Shown: one piece after another, positions 2,357-12,134 of the stretch
How the letters are laid out: each line of letters starts with the position of its first letter
How positions within the stretch are numbered: position 1 is the first letter of the stretch
IMG/VR virus record: IMGVR_UViG_3300038312_000251
Origin: an uncultured virus (IMG/VR IMGVR_UViG_3300038312_000251)
Lineage: Duplodnaviria > Heunggongvirae > Uroviricota > Caudoviricetes
DNA: 36,332 nucleotides
Direction: 5' to 3' (one strand)
Program-made: the position numbers and the translations under genes
The notes under the pieces: model-generated
The model's input: only the letters and a program-made list of their open reading frames with translations
What the model was told of the DNA's origin: nothing
Databases searched by the model: none

Positions 2357-3325
2357 TTATTTTAATTTACCTATTACATCTGTATTGAACTCTTTAGGTT
2401 TTTGTAAATTAGCAAAAACGTCCATTGCTTCGGTTTTGCTACATTCATCAATATCCTTTTTCATTGTATAAGTTATACTTGTTACAAAATAATTTTCAAG
2501 CTCCAAGCCATACCTTTTAATATCTTTGATAGCGTCAAAATCATATAACAATATAACATTTGTGACTCCTTTCAACCTTAACTTTTTTGATTGTTCGGGT
2601 GAAATTTTTTTTCCAAAGGTACAAACACATTTTATATCTTCATCATCCCAAAGTCTTAAAAATTTATCAACCGCAATTTTATCAAAAATACCTTCGACTA
2701 AAATAACAGTTGAAGTCTTTTCAGTTATTTCATCATATCCAAATAACAATTCTGAAAACGTTGTTCCAATACTATTATTATATCTTAATTTATCATTGGG
2801 TACTTGTTTGGCTCCATATCTACCGACAAAACCTCTTATCTCACCATTATCATAAATAGGAACTAAAACATAATTTTCAAATTTTCTAAACAATGAAGTA
2901 GCTCCTATATTGTAACGCTTACAATCCTTAGAAGTTATTCCACGATTTTTAAGGTATTCCGTGCTTGCTACGGACACTTTCCACCCTGCGGGCATACGTA
3001 TAACAGGCAGCTCTTTAAGTTCAACCTCATCGCCCTCAAGCTCATCTTCCAGCATAGAACGTAAACTGTTAATAGTTTCCCTAACTTCTATGGTAGCACC
3101 GCCCAATAAATAAGTTTTATCAAGCTGTTTTAAAAGTTTATAAATACTTCCGTACTCACCGCATTTTTTACAATCAAATAATTGAGTTTCTTTACTAACA
3201 TACATGTGCCTCTCCTTGCCACAAAAGATGCAGTCGCATATGTATTGACCCCTACGATTGAGTTTAGGATTTATCAATAAATCTCTTAAATCCGTGTCAT
3301 TAATTTTCTTCGTTTTGCGCTTCAT
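2357..3325 (-). CDS. DNA primase (zinc finger + TOPRIM)
   Basis: CIFC...H...CKKC zinc-binding domain; TOPRIM 'VILVEGIFD', 'LLYDFDA', 'KDIDE'. Start placed at MKRKTKK (3325), overlapping the helicase stop; the ORF track extends to 3382. Confidence 0.9.
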   Translation of the reverse strand: MKRKTKKINDTDLRDLLINPKLNRRGQYICDCIFCGKERHMYVSKETQLFDCKKCGEYGSIYKLLKQLDKTYLLGGATIEVRETINSLRSMLEDELEGDEVELKELPVIRMPAGWKVSVASTEYLKNRGITSKDCKRYNIGATSLFRKFENYVLVPIYDNGEIRGFVGRYGAKQVPNDKLRYNNSIGTTFSELLFGYDEITEKTSTVILVEGIFDKIAVDKFLRLWDDEDIKCVCTFGKKISPEQSKKLRLKGVTNVILLYDFDAIKDIKRYGLELENYFVTSITYTMKKDIDECSKTEAMDVFANLQKPKEFNTDVIGKLK

Positions 3326-4683
3326 ATTCATCCCAATCCATTTCCATTGTACGTTTACGGTCATAGAACCTTGCGTAACCAAAGTTGTTACAAATATGAA
3401 TAGGCTCTCCGTTTTTATAATCCCTTAATTTATCAGTATGAAGTCTCATCATTTCTTCTCTTGCTTCATCCCTGGTTTGATTAATTGTTATGAAAATATC
3501 AAATGGACGAATTTTCCCTTTATCTTCACTTAACTGAGCACGTGTTATTACAAACTCAGGGTCATTTTTCATTTCTTCTGGAATATTACTACTTTGGGTT
3601 GCTGTGTGAACTACGGCATTAAATTCCATAGCAAGCATTTTCATTCCTTTTGATAATTTCGCTTGTCTAAATCTTTCTTCATGTGGAGTATAATTGTGTC
3701 CATCTCCTACCTCTAACAGCTCTAAATAGTCAATCACTATAACATCTATTTTACCGTAAATTTTTTCCATCTCTTTGACTTCTCTACGAACGTCATTGAG
3801 AGTTTTAGCATTAAACGTTTCTTCAGATGAAACAATAACGNNNNNNNNNNNNNNNNCTTAATTTTTTTATAATGCGTTTGGTTACAGACATCTTTTTAGC
3901 AGGAATATTACCAAGTTTAACGTCTTGATAAAGAGTGCCTGTCCAAGCTGCATCATAACGGTTTAAACATTGTTCACGTGTACCTTCCAATTGAAAATGA
4001 GCAACCCTGAATCCTTGTCTTGCTGCTGAAACTCCTACGTGAACTAAAACTTGAGATTTTCCCGAACCTGAATCACCTAACCATAAAACGCATTCGCCAG
4101 TCTCTGGCCCACCATACTCACCGCCTAAACGATAATCAATTTCATCAATTGTTGTTGGTATCTTATATCTAAACTTCCAATCTTCACTCCTGCGTTTAGC
4201 CTGTCTTTCAGCAAAATCACCGAACACGGTTTCAAATTTAGCATCCTGAATTGAGAATTTACTAAAATCGTCAGCGTATTTTACAAATAAATCCCAAGCC
4301 TTATCTTTATCACCCCTATTATATACATCAGCAATTAAATCATTAGCTTCAAGAAATTTCATCTTTTTGATAAACTTCTCAAAACTTTCTACCACTAAAT
4401 CATAACCGCCATTTTCATCAATTTCAATATCGGCAATTTCTCCTATTTTATCAAGAACCTTTTCATCATCCGAAAAATGTTGCTGAATTTGTCCCAGGGT
4501 TGGGACTTTTCCTGTTTTATCATATCTTACAGTTATCCATTGCCATAGTTTTTTTTCCGATTCAACTTGAAAATATGAAAATTTGAGATATTGTCTTGCT
4601 ATATCAAAAATTGTTCTTTTCTCCAATGATGCGGCCAATAACTCTATTACAAAACCGCTTGTTAAATTACTATCTTTTGCCAT
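3300..4683 (-). CDS. DnaB-like (SF4) replicative helicase; one gene, split in the ORF track by an N gap
   Basis: Walker A GDSGSGKS and FQLEG in 3823-4683; VIVIDYLELL and TATQS in 3300-3770. The reading frame VIVSSEETFNAKTLNDVRREVKEMEKI is open from the gap into the second ORF. Confidence 0.9.
3841..3856. other. Assembly gap (16 N)
   Basis: Run of N; produces the apparent frameshift in the DnaB-like gene. Confidence 0.98.
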
Positions 4684-5272
4684 AACCTCTTTTATCGTAA
4701 ATTTTTGGGTACTCTTGTTTTAAGAGTGATTTACATTCCTTTTTAAACAAACACGTTGCGCATTTTGAACTTTTATGAAAATACAAAGTGGTGTTAGCAA
4801 CGCACCATAAAAAACCCCTCTTTGTATTATGATAATCCGCTTTAAAACTTTCTTCAACTGGACGTAAACTTGTGACTATTTTTGATATACTGCTTTCTTT
4901 TTTTACAACATTTATGTCATGATTCTTTTTTAAACCAATCCTTGTTATATAAACGTTTGTAGATATATCATATTTATTCCAACGCTCAATAGCAGCTTTA
5001 CCAAAAATCCAACTGAACCGAACCTGTCTTGAATAATCTTTTATAGCACCATCGTTAAACCAACTTTGAATTCCATACTCTAAAAATTTTCTAACAAATT
5101 CTTCACCAATACGGTTTGAAAAAGTATCCATAAAATTTTCCCAACTTGCCGTATCAGAATTGTTACATTTGTAATTCACTTTACGTTTTGTAACCTGTTC
5201 TAATAATTCAATAAAAGTATCTACAGCATATCTGAATAATATTTGTCTTTTTCGATTATTTTTTGTTTCCAT
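4670..5272 (-). CDS. Hypothetical replication-module protein with C-terminal Cys cluster
   Basis: Likely start METKNN (5272; track 5299); 'WCVAN...HKSSKCATCLFKKEC' possible metal site; lies between the two helicases. Confidence 0.7.
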   Translation of the reverse strand: METKNNRKRQILFRYAVDTFIELLEQVTKRKVNYKCNNSDTASWENFMDTFSNRIGEEFVRKFLEYGIQSWFNDGAIKDYSRQVRFSWIFGKAAIERWNKYDISTNVYITRIGLKKNHDINVVKKESSISKIVTSLRPVEESFKADYHNTKRGFLWCVANTTLYFHKSSKCATCLFKKECKSLLKQEYPKIYDKRGYGKR

Positions 5273-6203
5273 ATTCCCATCCTTCTGGCAATTTATCATC
5301 TTTAAATATGTATTTATTTTTTAAACCATTATTTATACAAACTTTGCCCTTATTTCCAGGAGATTTTCCTAAAAAATATTTAGATAATTTAATTTTAGTT
5401 TCTTCGGAATGATGTTTACCTTTAAATGGATGATTTAAAGATACATATTTTTTAATATTTTCACGATGTTTTTCACTCAATTTTCTTCCAGTTAATTTTT
5501 CTGATAAATTCTTCCTTGATTCTTCTGACATAACAATTCCTTTATTCCAAGGAGTTTTACCTTTATGAGACTCGCTTAATTTTTTTCTTGTTTCTATTGA
5601 TGTTTTTTTACCTACGTTCCAAGGAGTTTTTCTTTTATTTTTTTCAGAAACTTTATTACTAACTTCTTTATTTTTCATTGGATTTTTATCTCCAATTTTT
5701 GATAAACCTATTTTTATTTTAGTTTCACGACTTAATTTCTTATTTTTGCCACTTTCAGACATTTTCTTTTTAGTTTCGTCAGAAAGTTTTTTACCTAAAT
5801 TTATATCACTTAATTTCTTTTTAGTAGATTCATCTAAACGTGAACTGTTACCTCCCCAAGCTATATTAGTTCCTCCTAATTTATATGAATAATGAGATTT
5901 TTCATGTTTTATATAATATTCTTCCATCTTGTCAAGACATTTTTGAGAACAAATTTCTGAATAAAATAAAACTTCACGTCTTATAAGTTTTCTCCAATTT
6001 TTAGGATAGTCTTGTTTTATTCTTTTCATGAAATCATTCCAAATTTTACCACTTCCTGGATAATTTGAAACATTTGAAGATAAAAAATGCTCCTTTCCTT
6101 TATTTTCCCAATGTTGACCTATATAAAATGGTTTGTTTTCATTAAACTTGTATTTTGCTATTATAGTGAATTTGTAAATTATTCCATCCATTTTCCTATC
6201 CAT
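5256..6203 (-). CDS. Free-standing GIY-YIG homing endonuclease with NUMOD3 repeats (Seg-like)
   Basis: 'GIIYKFT...FYIGQH', 'YPGSG', repeated 'KLSDETKKKMSES / SxETRKKLSESHKGKTPWNKG', C-terminal 'INNG...LPEGWEYG'; visibly more AT-rich than its neighbours. Confidence 0.88.
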   Translation of the reverse strand: MDRKMDGIIYKFTIIAKYKFNENKPFYIGQHWENKGKEHFLSSNVSNYPGSGKIWNDFMKRIKQDYPKNWRKLIRREVLFYSEICSQKCLDKMEEYYIKHEKSHYSYKLGGTNIAWGGNSSRLDESTKKKLSDINLGKKLSDETKKKMSESGKNKKLSRETKIKIGLSKIGDKNPMKNKEVSNKVSEKNKRKTPWNVGKKTSIETRKKLSESHKGKTPWNKGIVMSEESRKNLSEKLTGRKLSEKHRENIKKYVSLNHPFKGKHHSEETKIKLSKYFLGKSPGNKGKVCINNGLKNKYIFKDDKLPEGWEYGNKK

Positions 6204-8018: not shown

Positions 8019-11000
8019 TCAATACAAGTCTAACATATCACCCCCATACATTGATGCTATTTCTTCTCTTGATAAAATTCTATTAATTATTTGAACATTA
8101 TTAACAGGTGAATCAAAATTAGTAACTCCTGAGAATCCTGTAATTGAAGGAGTAAAAGGAGTTCCAAATAAATATAAACTACCTTTAAAATTGCTTAGGT
8201 CAATTGCAGTACTCGCTATTATTTCAGCTCTTAATCCACCGCTGTTTTTATATAGTTTTAATAACCCGTTTGAATCACATGTTAAAGTGAACAATTTATC
8301 TACTATGGTTTGTGGATAATTAAAACCAGCCATAATAAGAGTATTATTGAAATGTAATTGATGATTTACTAAAAATAAAAATTGTTTGTTTTCAGAAAGT
8401 GGATTAAAAGCAATTAGTATTCTTTTTTTTCCATTCGTCGCCGCATTTATATTTGACCAGAAAGATATTGTCCAATTCCCCTCGCTTAAATCAATATTAA
8501 AAGATTGATTTATATAACAAGTGTCTGAAAAATGCAATGCTTTCTTATTTTTCTCTATAATTGATGGGTAAAACTCCCACAACTTCTTACCTTTACCCTC
8601 TATCCAATTTGGTGAATTAATTACTACTGGAGTGTTATTAATTTCTTCAATTACATTTTCACTATTGTTTAAAGGTAAATAAAGCAAATCTGCATATAAT
8701 TTATCATTAGAAACATTTGCTTCTATTGATTTTAAAAAATAACCGCTCTCTACTTTAATGTCTAAACCCTCTATAGGAATTTGAGTTTTTAAAATCACCA
8801 TAGCATGATAATTATCTCCCCCATCAAATATTCGTAATGAACTGTATTTACCTTTAGTCTGACAACCAGCTAATATCTGTTCAACACCTCCTATTGTAGC
8901 TTTACCAATATGTCTAAATCCATCCGACGCTCCCCCTTCATTCATTTCTCCTATACTAAATACAGTTTTCCAAGTTTCGCCGTCATCTATACTTCTAATA
9001 ATAGACGCCCCTTGAGAATCATTTGTTGAAATTCCACCTGAATATAAAGCATTATTTAATCTCTGTATTTGATAGTAACCCTTTCCATTAGATAATACAG
9101 GATAGAAATTAACGTCATCTACTGTTTTTATCAATGAATGCCCTCCAACAATAGATGTTTCACCAGTAATCAATCTAAATCCCTGTTCTGCATAAGCAAC
9201 CACATTATCAGATGATTGTATAGTTCCTGAAAGCCTTTCCCACGTTAACCCTTTATCGAGAGTTCTCATTACCGCTCCTCCCCCATCAAAACCTGCATAT
9301 CCTACTTCAGGGTTTTGAAATTTATCTACGTACACCCCATGAACATGTTGAAAATCCTTTGTCTCATAACATAAATTCCAAGTTATTCCATTGTCTATGC
9401 TTCGGAATATCTTTACATCCCATGCACTTTGGTATCTACCACATATAAGTTCCCCAGATGAAAATTGCCCCATACTTTTTTGAAATACAAAGCCGTCCCC
9501 ATCATCCATTATAGAAAAATCTAATACAATATTAAATGTATCATATGGAGCTTCAGACCTATATATTTTATTATTTTTAATAGTATAAATAATATCTCCT
9601 AAAGCAACAAACACTAATTTTCCACAATCAGGGGATATTACTTCCCAAGTAGTACCATTAAAAATACTAACAGAATTGGTATCAAATGAAGAAATAGGAG
9701 TACCATCACTCAACGTATCAACTCTTGCATTTACAGGAAGAGTATTATCAGTCAAAATGTCATAATTACCTTGTGATAAAATATCAAAAGGAATAAAGTT
9801 ACCTTGACTGTCTAATATACGTACATCACTAAAATTATTTTGCGCCTTTCCCTCAAAGAAAATATCGTTATTAGCTGGGGTAAATTTAGGCATATTCTTA
9901 TGAAAATTAAGAATAATAATTTTATCATCTCCTGCATATGCCCCATCTATATGGATATTCTCCGAATGATATTCACCCGCATTCTTAGCCTGATATAAAC
10001 CGTCAAAATCAATACCAGATAAACTGTTAACAATTTGCTTATCTTCATCTGTGTAATTGTTATCTGATAACCCCATCCCATCAACTTTGCTGACTTTGTT
10101 CGGTATGCTATCAACAAGTTCTTTATCTTCATCTGTGTAATTGTTATCTGTATAACTATATGTTAACTCCAAAGGAACTATTCCGTCAAACCAGCCATTT
10201 GGGTATTTAGATAATTCTATTTCAAACTCTTCTAAAGTAGGCTCATTACCTTCTCCGTATGTAGCAGTTAAATCGCATATCACTAAATTCTTAATCTTGA
10301 AAATAGACCCAACTGATTCAGCAGCACTGTTATATTCAGTGTTTAATGTAAATCCGACATTACTACTATTATTAAACTCTATGTATGAAATTCCACGTAA
10401 TTTATTCCATATATTTTGAGATGGATTATCAATAAATAAAGAGTTTTTTGCTGATGCGTCACGTATCGAAAAAATAGATATGCGATTACAGTTATTAGAT
10501 GTTACTAAAACATCAGCTCCAATATAGTACTTATGCCCTAATTTACTTAACTCATAAACACCCAGCCTAAGCACCCTTGGGTTTGGAGAAGTCCCATTGG
10601 ATGTCCCAATTAACATATTATCTTCATAAGACAACGTTACTCCTATTGAAGCACTCCCAATAGGGTTTCGATAGTCACTATTAATTGATAAGTTTTTCAA
10701 CCCTGTATTTATTTGCAATCTATTCCATAAAGATATATCGTACCATGCACTATCAGACAAGCCTACACCATTATATTGATAAGTTTCTATTTGATCTTCA
10801 GAGCGGTAAATAACAGTTAATCCTTGCTTTCTGTAAGAAGTAGGTACAGACACAATAGCATCACTGGAGTTATAATAACCACTTGATTTCGGAAACATAT
10901 AATCCATATTAATTATCAATGCTTCCGTTTTATTCAATTTCAGATTCACTTCACCCGCTAATTGATCCAATTCGCTCTTATCAGATGCGTTATATATTGT

Positions 11001-12134
11001 TACCCAGCCTGTTTCCGACCAACCAATATCTCCGCCTGCTATATCAGTGTTAATTTCAACAATTAATCCATCTTCCGGGTGTAAATACGACACAATAACA
11101 CCCATTGATAAGGCTTTAGGACATAGGACTAACAGTTTTTTTCGTGTTGTGGGTTTGTCTATTTCAAATTCGAGATTAAAGACTTTTGAATCTAATTTTA
11201 TCCAATATTTTGAATCAGACCAAACGGCATCATTTAACACATCGCCAGTTACATTGCGCCATATCTGATAATTGTTGTAACCCCCAAAGGTAAGTTGCTG
11301 TCCAGATTTTCTTTTTTCTTTTGGAACCGACAAAGCTGCTTCTGCAAATGTGGTTTTATCAGAGTAAAAGACGGATGTTTCGCCCGCTAATTGAACTATT
11401 TCATCATCAACCTCCTTCAATGTTTTTGGCGATGAAGCGTATCCGTGAGAAGCCTTTAGCGCAAGTTCATCAGTAACAGCCTTTTGAGACATTGTTTTAT
11501 TTATGTTCGTTCCTGTTGTTTGAACAATCTCAAAATTAAAACCGCTTTGTAATCTCCAACCATTTTCAGAACCTTCGTAACTATAATAACCATTTTCCGC
11601 TGGAGTTGTAGAATTTACAACTGTCACCAACTCTCCTATTTTTATCAAGCGTCCATCCGTTCCAATTGGATTGACCGAATCAGCGTTCATTGCTGCAACA
11701 GATGCATATGTTTTGCGAATATTATAACCGTAATAAAAGTTTGCTGATTCAGCACTACTAATTATATTGGTGTTGAAAGTGTAAGCAACCCAATGCTCCA
11801 TATTCCATAAAAGAATAACGAACACACCTTCCATTTCGCCAGTTGTTATTGAAATAGGATTGCCTTCATCATCAATGAAATTACTGAATGTCACTGTTCT
11901 GTCTTGACCAACGCCTGCGATGTAACAAACTTTACCTTGGTCTGGTTGAACTGGAACGGTACTTTCTTCTGCTAATCCTACCAGAGTGCTTGTAGATACA
12001 AGCTCAACGCTACGAACATAATCAAGCATATTCAAGGCATACGCTTGGTGTTTTGCAGGCTGAATCTCCGTTCCTGCCTGCCTGCCCATGAGAGCTTCTA
12101 TAATCAAATTCCTTGTGTCGTTATATCCTGCCAT
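8019..12134 (-). CDS. Mosaic tail fibre / receptor-binding protein with Asp-box beta-propeller and C-terminal LamG/ConA-like domain
   Basis: Last gene of the tail module. 'IVQTTGT...MSQKAVTDEL' fibre motif; Asp boxes SIDNGITW, TLDKGLTW, SIDDGETW; LamG-like 'WTISFWS...LTCDSNGLLKLYKN...VQIINRILSREEIASMY'. Confidence 0.8.
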   Translation of the reverse strand: MAGYNDTRNLIIEALMGRQAGTEIQPAKHQAYALNMLDYVRSVELVSTSTLVGLAEESTVPVQPDQGKVCYIAGVGQDRTVTFSNFIDDEGNPISITTGEMEGVFVILLWNMEHWVAYTFNTNIISSAESANFYYGYNIRKTYASVAAMNADSVNPIGTDGRLIKIGELVTVVNSTTPAENGYYSYEGSENGWRLQSGFNFEIVQTTGTNINKTMSQKAVTDELALKASHGYASSPKTLKEVDDEIVQLAGETSVFYSDKTTFAEAALSVPKEKRKSGQQLTFGGYNNYQIWRNVTGDVLNDAVWSDSKYWIKLDSKVFNLEFEIDKPTTRKKLLVLCPKALSMGVIVSYLHPEDGLIVEINTDIAGGDIGWSETGWVTIYNASDKSELDQLAGEVNLKLNKTEALIINMDYMFPKSSGYYNSSDAIVSVPTSYRKQGLTVIYRSEDQIETYQYNGVGLSDSAWYDISLWNRLQINTGLKNLSINSDYRNPIGSASIGVTLSYEDNMLIGTSNGTSPNPRVLRLGVYELSKLGHKYYIGADVLVTSNNCNRISIFSIRDASAKNSLFIDNPSQNIWNKLRGISYIEFNNSSNVGFTLNTEYNSAAESVGSIFKIKNLVICDLTATYGEGNEPTLEEFEIELSKYPNGWFDGIVPLELTYSYTDNNYTDEDKELVDSIPNKVSKVDGMGLSDNNYTDEDKQIVNSLSGIDFDGLYQAKNAGEYHSENIHIDGAYAGDDKIIILNFHKNMPKFTPANNDIFFEGKAQNNFSDVRILDSQGNFIPFDILSQGNYDILTDNTLPVNARVDTLSDGTPISSFDTNSVSIFNGTTWEVISPDCGKLVFVALGDIIYTIKNNKIYRSEAPYDTFNIVLDFSIMDDGDGFVFQKSMGQFSSGELICGRYQSAWDVKIFRSIDNGITWNLCYETKDFQHVHGVYVDKFQNPEVGYAGFDGGGAVMRTLDKGLTWERLSGTIQSSDNVVAYAEQGFRLITGETSIVGGHSLIKTVDDVNFYPVLSNGKGYYQIQRLNNALYSGGISTNDSQGASIIRSIDDGETWKTVFSIGEMNEGGASDGFRHIGKATIGGVEQILAGCQTKGKYSSLRIFDGGDNYHAMVILKTQIPIEGLDIKVESGYFLKSIEANVSNDKLYADLLYLPLNNSENVIEEINNTPVVINSPNWIEGKGKKLWEFYPSIIEKNKKALHFSDTCYINQSFNIDLSEGNWTISFWSNINAATNGKKRILIAFNPLSENKQFLFLVNHQLHFNNTLIMAGFNYPQTIVDKLFTLTCDSNGLLKLYKNSGGLRAEIIASTAIDLSNFKGSLYLFGTPFTPSITGFSGVTNFDSPVNNVQIINRILSREEIASMYGGDMLDLY
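10039..10150. repeat. Identical 28-bp direct repeat in the RBP (DNNYTDEDK x2)
   Basis: ttatcttcatctgtgtaattgttatctg at 10039-10066 and 10123-10150, 84 bp apart (in frame). Confidence 0.9.
10950..11402 (-). repeat. Pair of 24-bp junction repeats (QLAGE) in the RBP
   Basis: GAAATAGTTCAATTAGCGGGCGAA (11402-11379) vs GAATTGGATCAATTAGCGGGTGAA (10973-10950): 20/24 identical, exact 12-bp core, 429 bp apart in frame. Confidence 0.85.

Follow-up and report, generated by a model that had tools for sequence, protein, structure and literature searches.

A codon-locked word as a candidate seam for module exchange in tail-fibre genes of uncultured tailed phages

Our analysis indicates that the tail-fibre gene in a 36,332-nucleotide stretch of DNA from an uncultured virus (Caudoviricetes; IMG/VR record IMGVR_UViG_3300038312_000251), the whole of which is called the window here, contains a short word of DNA that appears to mark the place where distal parts of fibre genes are joined. 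A short linker of shaft repeats, HGY...KTLKxVDDExx, has the word at its distal end, where it is read x-Q-L-A-G-E/D. Comparison with fibre genes of other phages established that the word is constant letter for letter, also at its silent positions, in genes with many different anchors, that the DNA homology of related fibre genes ends in the word or just after it and is back at the stop codon, and that many unrelated distal parts, putatively receptor-binding, are found behind it. The explanation that we moderately favour is that the word most probably acts as a short homology seam at which phages exchange fibre modules in frame.

Spelling of the word across phages

The seams, by which we mean the junctions that carry the word, were gathered without regard to codons, with a pattern that allowed every codon spelling of the peptide KTLK[QE]V[DE]DE upstream of the word. 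This pattern had 12 viral, 49 metagenome and 19 genome-contig loci, and most of the metagenome and genome matches are due to chance. The continuation xxQLA was present in 23 of the 61 viral and metagenome matches, which gave 18 distinct strings of 48 nt. The Q of QLA was encoded by CAA in 18 of 18 strings, compared with 3 of 16 for the Q six codons upstream, and the L by TTA in all 18, compared with none of the 18 for the upstream L. The A was GCG in 16 strings and GCT in 2, the codon after QLA was GGC in 15 and GGT, GAC and GTC in one each, and V was GTT in 15 of 15. By contrast, the residues T, L, K, V and D in the peptide upstream draw on every synonymous codon. Given QLAG and the codon usage of the same fibre open reading frames (ORFs), the spelling CAA TTA GCG GGC is expected with a probability of 0.006 per instance. 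The same spelling was reached by the route through the peptide MSQKAVTDE and the anchor (L117/L314, L316), by fibre-type ELDQLAGE matches (L223, L268) and through a genome contig (L190).

For a pooled comparison we took every in-frame QLA[GDV] in an ORF of at least 100 amino acids (aa) and in a seam-type context, that is 33 instances with 25 distinct strings, and counted the positions from the C of CAA. The 25 strings do not vary at positions -1 to +7, and positions +8 to +13 match in 22-25 of them; Q and L have the same codon in every pooled seam. All 25 strings have a T directly before CAA, as the last base of seven different codons, the stretch of nine conserved codons that leads up to the word varies freely, and the residues before and after the word change while the word itself stays constant. 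The conservation stops abruptly on the 3' side, where at least 20 different distal continuations follow. Among the 10 QLA[GDV] instances left outside the pool (non-fibre or short frames and one word-bearing seam near a contig end) there was no fibre seam with other codons. An additional scan with the exact pattern CAATTAGCGGGNGAA, which is biased to the word and yields mostly chance matches, was treated as a lead only; by reading, 7 fibre seams were recognized among the 116 matches listed in viral contigs.

Two control peptides behave differently. For MSQKAVTDE all 26 viral matches are fibre-like and all four-fold codons vary; in EELDQFAGE, which belongs to an unrelated family, the codons are free to vary as well. 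MSQKAVTDE is therefore a useful contrast to the codon-locked QLAG word. These data support the notion that the constraint on the word acts at the DNA level. The earlier note on this DNA, made from the window alone, had proposed such a constraint and had named QLAGE with freely varying codons as the observation that would speak against it; the proposal is upheld by the 25 codon-blind seams with the same Q and L codons next to scrambled upstream codons, and the free variation was seen in none of them.

Breakpoints and mosaic genes

Eight genes that share one anchor (about 82-94% DNA identity) and four that share another can no longer be aligned directly behind ...GGCGA. When all genes were compared with each other by blastn, the upstream high-scoring segment pairs ended at +8 to +26, with a mode at +12 to +15; L126 and L133 are 100% identical over 2546 nt, up to +13. 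The homology returns at the stop codon of the fibre gene, in a conserved intergenic stretch, and therefore the replaced unit comprises everything from the word to the stop. Genes from different anchor groups are alike only from -33 to +14 (47-50 nt, 82-92% identical), and at least seven anchor types carry the linker and the word. In three of four sequencing runs, among which the source of the window may be included, Logan contigs of other phages match the window from 11379/80 to 11417/26 only and are unlike it on both sides, and Logan contigs have loose ends at 11379-11382. In the relative P0001 the anchor is 95% identical through QLAGE and the remainder is unrelated. The gene L132 pairs the L126 anchor with the L122 cassette, with the junction in a shared block from -102 to +13; this mosaic looks recent and like an ordinary exchange between phages through shared blocks. 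The cassette boundary proposed by the earlier note is thus corroborated by the breaks at the word and by the many unrelated distal modules behind it.

The 3' boundary of the swaps can be described for one phage group, in which the cassettes of L127, L135, L152, L156 and L130 end at the stop and are followed by the conserved intergenic stretch (GGACGATTTGAACTAAAA...); L130 has about 1.1 kb of extra DNA between the fibre stop and this stretch. A 6-nt inverted match (GTTCAA / TTGAAC) that connects the word with the conserved stretch behind the stop, also in one phage group, was judged to be chance.

Contigs in public assemblies repeatedly stop no more than about 60 codons away from the seams, as in L117 (at the contig end), L129, L132 and L147 (which starts at window position 11469). 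Such ends would be expected if several fibre variants coexist in one sample.

Organization of the fibre gene and the repeat inside the window

The features of the gene to which we refer are the following (window coordinates, all on the minus strand):

8019..12134 (-), tail-fibre (receptor-binding) gene, an ORF of 1371 aa, the last in the tail/baseplate block
11463..12134 (-), N-terminal virion anchor (aa 1-224), kept in many relatives
11466..11492 (-), seam J1, peptide MSQKAVTDE (aa 215-223), main break of the anchor family, conserved at the protein level only
11379..11447 (-), shaft-repeat linker HGYASSPKTLKEVDDEIVQLAGE (aa 230-252), common to fibre genes with at least seven different anchors
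11380..11394 (-), site 1, codon-locked word T-CAA-TTA-GCG-GGC-GA (x-Q-L-A-G-E), marking the 5' limit of the distal region open to exchange
10950..11378 (-), module A, 143 codons (aa 253-395) between the two words, distant kin of the domain after site 2
10951..10965 (-), site 2, word copy T-CAA-TTA-GCG-GGT-GA in ELDQLAGEV
10710..10928 (-), small domain after site 2 (about aa 403-475), found behind other seams in other fibres

The two copies of the word belong to a 24-nt direct repeat at 10950-10973 and 11379-11402, which is identical in 20 of 24 positions and contains an exact 12-nt core, TCAATTAGCGGG, on the minus (coding) strand at 10954-10965 and 11383-11394. The copies are 429 nt, or 143 codons, apart and in frame, exactly as the earlier note had described, and both read QLAGE (aa 248-252 at site 1, aa 391-395 at site 2). 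With at most one mismatch the 12-mer occurs at these two places only in the 36-kb window. When the two peptides were fixed and their codons were resampled 100,000 times with the codon usage of the window, an exact run of at least 12 nt appeared in 5.2% of cases, and the same gene contains further exact direct repeats of 12-13 nt (D14, D17). On the window data alone the repeat is beyond chance only weakly (P ~0.05); it stands above chance mainly because of the locked codons and the breakpoints in other phages.

Up to site 1 the GC content is 39.4%; the value for the 143-codon module is 37.8%, and beyond site 2 it is 32.1%. The shift of composition that had been suggested at site 1 is thus not there, and the drop that does exist lies at or after site 2. 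The suggestion that the flanks of the two sites are unrelated has to be qualified too, as module A is distantly homologous to aa 396-560 (BLASTP E = 5e-5, 24% identity over 98 aa). A word-based search found no homologues of module A elsewhere except the protein itself, and a search with aa 381-700 yielded P0014 and weak matches only, the viral loci being uninformative. P0014 has 50% identity over the module after site 2, with QLAGE kept in front of it and behind a KTLK-type linker. The nine codons of site 2 are identical at 26 of 27 nt in the fibre gene L074/L268, where both flanks are unrelated. For the small domain after site 2, phmmer places the domain starts at aa 401-408 in P0008, P0014, P0022 and P0061. 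The order linker-QLAGE-domain occurs twice with distantly related domains, which fits a stacked or duplicated linker-plus-domain unit, and the direct repeat could allow such a unit to be gained or lost in frame. Runs X3 and X4 have contigs for the anchor, for the module after site 2 or for both, and none for module A or across the interval; this is not evidence of a variant without the module. Runs in which only small shares of the words occur were left aside in judging the habitat.

The linker is part of a tandem shaft repeat of about 18-19 aa, KAxHGYxxxPKTLKxVDDE, which is present in 1-3 copies before the word (L124, L144, L174, L149). No Pfam family matched the linker and shaft-repeat region of the window protein, and the structure of aa 205-560 predicted from the single sequence had a mean pLDDT of 31.9, too low to use.

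Search for a dedicated recombination system

No recombinase was found among the 35 ORFs of the window with PHROGs, and a resolvase (PF00239) was present in 0 of 4 related contigs. A tyrosine integrase (PF00589) occurs in 2 of the 4, about 4.3-5.6 kb away, and is not in the 90%-complete contig. The search for a recombinase that the earlier note had called for thus gave integrases at a distance of kilobases in two related contigs and nothing in the window. The window has two direct copies of the word and each of the four related viral contigs with a match has one; inverted copies in the window and alternative silent cassettes were not found. The pooled seams have no dyad symmetry and no second half-site, that is, their conservation is one-sided. 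The DNA folds of both sites on both strands gave z-scores of -1.26 to +0.96 against shuffles and no hairpin; judged by these folds, the structured single-strand site that an integron-like attC places at cassette ends is missing. Accordingly, the site-specific recombinase postulated in the earlier note finds no backing in a one-sided site without a hairpin, present in direct copies only and with no linked recombinase.

Other known arrangements were compared as well. The gene has no long repeat pair of the kind used by diversity-generating retroelements (DGRs), the longest being 43 nt, a reverse transcriptase was found in 0 of 35 ORFs, and the cassettes are unrelated in sequence rather than point variants of one another, unlike the template and variable repeats of DGRs, which differ at adenines. 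The features of the Gin/Cin/Min and Rci systems are missing, as no recombinase adjoins the fibre gene among the 35 window ORFs and no inverted dyad-symmetric sites flank alternative segments. The NUMOD3 endonuclease of the window was found in 0 of 5 related viral contigs. At the two sites there is no excess of internal promoter matches and nothing of the kind is conserved, and the sole terminator-like match relies on a downstream arm specific to the window.

Surroundings and other features of the fibre gene

The fibre gene has the genes of the major head protein, protease, sheath and baseplate wedge as neighbours, a structural block of the myovirus type. The 1371-aa protein has a PHROG tail-fibre match (phrog_32680) at aa 662-705 and 951 relatives in phmmer at E <= 0.001. 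With the anchor, L117 was the single locus found in viral contigs (78% DNA identity, as far as window position 11466), and tblastn against named phages gave one weak match.

Further downstream the gene contains a tandem DNNYTDEDK(E/Q)(L/I)V repeat at 10024-10066 and 10108-10150 (-), with units of 43 nt that are 88% identical and 84 nt apart. The viral contig L311 starts exactly at this repeat with 95% identity, which may be a further seam or an assembly break. Weak BNR/Asp-box and Sortilin-Vps10 matches at aa 908-970 and a 28-nt repeat at 8968-8995 and 9376-9403, 408 nt apart (SIDNGITW / SIDDGETW), suggest that the distal fibre domain is a beta-propeller of a sialidase-like kind. Outside the fibre gene, a DnaB-like helicase apparently lies in two ORFs, 3300-3770 and 3823-4683 (-), separated by a gap of 52 nt, with the N-terminal part covering profile positions 166-421 and the C-terminal part 455-592; the split could be due to a frameshift or an intervening element, or it could be genuine. 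A free-standing homing-type endonuclease with three NUMOD3 motifs (phrog_314) is located within the replication module at 5256-6203 (-).

Discussion

We suppose that the exchange could proceed as follows. Two phages, or a phage and a prophage, would meet in one cell, where the word together with the partly conserved linker would offer a short stretch of perfect match, in frame, at which recombination or template switching could take place. A second crossover would take place in the conserved DNA past the fibre gene, and so the whole distal cassette would be replaced with the frame intact. Lineages that keep the word would retain access to a shared pool of cassettes, and the word would stay unmutated because this access would be kept.

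Several observations weigh against a homology seam. Fifteen identical bases are short for homologous recombination of the RecA or RecT type. The sharp edges of the word and the silent drift in the adjacent 33 nt, which encode a conserved peptide, are not what simple selection for homology would leave, and they would fit a site recognized by a protein as well or better. That 15 nt are frozen while the next 33 nt drift is thus poorly explained, and for this reason the recognition site is kept as a rival. The evidence for recombination consists of natural mosaics, and we infer that the word is maintained by lineage-level selection or by conversion. QLAG is present in only 3 of the 150 best relatives of the anchor, the other 147 being without the word. 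Among the 139 anchor alignments, the end lies at aa 110-139 in 66 and at aa 220-229 in 33, and a single alignment ends in each of the intervals aa 250-259 and aa 260-269. The window's own anchor family breaks mainly at the MSQKAVTDE seam, about 25 aa upstream of QLAGE: sequences diverge after this peptide, and contig record 24 shares only 11464-11493 with the window. The claim that alignments break at the core therefore holds in the word-carrying genes and fails for the wider anchor family, which breaks mainly at the two upstream places. L129 has two tandem linkers, so the joins are not all word-to-word, and in L149 a related cassette stands behind IADVESDV and the word is missing. Run X2 contains a close relative that lacks 30 nt across site 2, between 10953 and 10990. 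Finally, a variant with the 429-nt deletion, or its joints, was looked for in the Logan contigs of four runs and none was seen; the circle-junction or module-lacking sequences that the earlier note had anticipated did not appear among these contigs either.

It is possible, at a rather low probability, that the word is the recognition site of a sequence-specific phage or host enzyme which targets the exchange to the seam, such as a nicking or homing-type endonuclease or a recombinase that uses a half-site or a single site, or else a Chi-like signal read by the host machinery that processes breaks, with a break or a strand transfer at the seam. The block from -1 to +13 is indeed sharp-edged, with 5 of 5 silent positions fixed or nearly so among scrambled neighbours, genes of the L314/L316 type share with the window hardly more than the word, and the window itself encodes the NUMOD3 endonuclease of the homing type. 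The word also includes AGCGG, the Chi sequence of Bacillus subtilis. However, candidate enzymes are not linked to the word in the related contigs (resolvase 0/4, integrase 2/4 and several kb off, the window endonuclease 0/5), the site has neither a dyad nor a conserved right half nor a hairpin, and occurrences of CAATTAGCGGGNGAA elsewhere look like chance, given the few fibre seams among the matches listed. If such an enzyme exists, recombination would be aimed at an in-frame fibre joint across unrelated phage groups, and the word would be a shared 'socket standard' for host-range cassettes. An explanation that we consider unlikely is that the silent sites are conserved for a function of the nucleic acid other than exchange, the cassette edge being simply a domain boundary; examples would be a translational pause at the rare codons GCG and GGC that aids the folding of the trimeric fibre, or a regulatory or RNA-binding site. 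Both codons are rare in the window (12% of Ala and 11% of Gly codons), the word is always at the junction of linker and domain, and the low-confidence model mentioned above places helices on both linkers, which is a hint only. Pausing would nevertheless leave the fixation of the common codons CAA and TTA unexplained, as well as that of the base before the word through seven different codons. There is, moreover, no promoter-like excess at the sites, the terminator-like match is specific to the window, no fold is better than shuffles, and L149 works without the word.

In its strict form, the proposal of the earlier note would make the two copies crossover sites of a dedicated recombinase encoded elsewhere, which would insert, stack or excise modules inside the genome of the phage, much as a shufflon or an invertase system does. 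Two in-frame direct copies 429 nt apart and the lock at the DNA level agree with this proposal, and the part examined was 36 kb of a genome that measures at least about 98 kb. We regard it as very improbable nonetheless: the repeats are direct only, without an inverted copy, and the site is asymmetric; the four related contigs have one copy each and no silent cassettes were found; the 35 scanned ORFs hold no recombinase; the contigs of the four runs hold no deletion or circle junction; and the variation is between phages, not inside one genome. The least credible of the explanations is that QLAGE is a linker at the protein level only, whose shared spelling is due to chance or codon bias. The identity of the two copies in the window is only weakly improbable (P ~0.05), and a repeated pentapeptide is not rare in 1371 aa. 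The same spelling in 25 of 25 codon-blind instances, compared with 0.006 expected per instance, speaks against it, as do the free variation of MSQKAVTDE and EELDQFAGE and the change of the flanking amino acids around a constant word. The reading of QLAGE as a mere protein linker was therefore rejected as contradicted by the codon lock and by both controls, and the homology seam remains the explanation that we prefer.

Tail-fibre swapping sets the host range of phages, and the seam described here is an unusually clean natural case, a five-codon joint that is frozen while its neighbours drift, shared by at least seven virion anchors and at least 20 distal ends. It makes it testable whether such joints persist through selection for exchangeability or through the action of a dedicated enzyme, and also whether the joint can be used as a natural in-frame splice point for predicting or, in laboratory phages, building compatible combinations of anchor and binding domain. 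The seam also accounts for breaks of metagenome assemblies in the fibre gene.

Comparison with known systems

Invertible fibre segments and shufflons are known from Gin/gix of Mu, Cin/cix of P1, Min of p15B and Rci/sfx of R64. These systems combine an adjoining recombinase gene with inverted sites of dyad symmetry and with alternative segments carried by the same genome. The seam resembles them in that the crossover sites lie within the fibre gene, in frame, at the junction of a constant and a variable part. It differs from them in that an adjoining recombinase, inverted dyad sites and alternative segments were not found in the window and four related contigs.

Literature searches found neither the DNA core nor the peptide KTLKQVDDE, 'qlage' matched unrelated words, and searches by topic found no description of a QLAG seam. 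The kind of feature is already known in phage fibre genes. The distinct new route of diversification that the earlier note had envisaged is therefore not claimed here, since the available parts of two papers already describe recombination at motifs in fibre genes (PMC3157838, PMC10408124).

In T-even phages, exchanges that give chimeric adhesins occur within or near motifs of gp37 and the glycine-rich motifs of gp38 (Tetart 1998, as cited in the available part of Trojet 2011, PMC3157838). As in gp37/gp38, to the extent that this source describes them, short conserved motifs in host-recognition genes part hypervariable segments. In contrast to the T-even phages, the phages studied here are uncultured, come from metagenomes of the fermenter or digester type and are known from sequence alone, and their motif is a different one: a single sharp-edged 15-nt word stands beside drifting silent sites and the whole distal cassette appears to be swapped up to the stop.

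In lytic E. coli phages, conserved DNA motifs flank the coding sequences of receptor-binding domains and were proposed to be recombination hotspots (Pas 2023, PMC10408124, available part), and such conserved-motif hotspots are used as a category in the accessible part of a preprint (bioRxiv 10.64898/2026.05.12.724579). There, as here, the flanks of an exchangeable domain are more conserved than the surroundings, are common to several genera and are read as aiding transfer. Whereas those hotspots, as that part of the source defines them, extend over about 30 aa and rest on thresholds of identity, the seam described here consists of five codons and is recognized by the lock at its silent sites, measured against an internal control.

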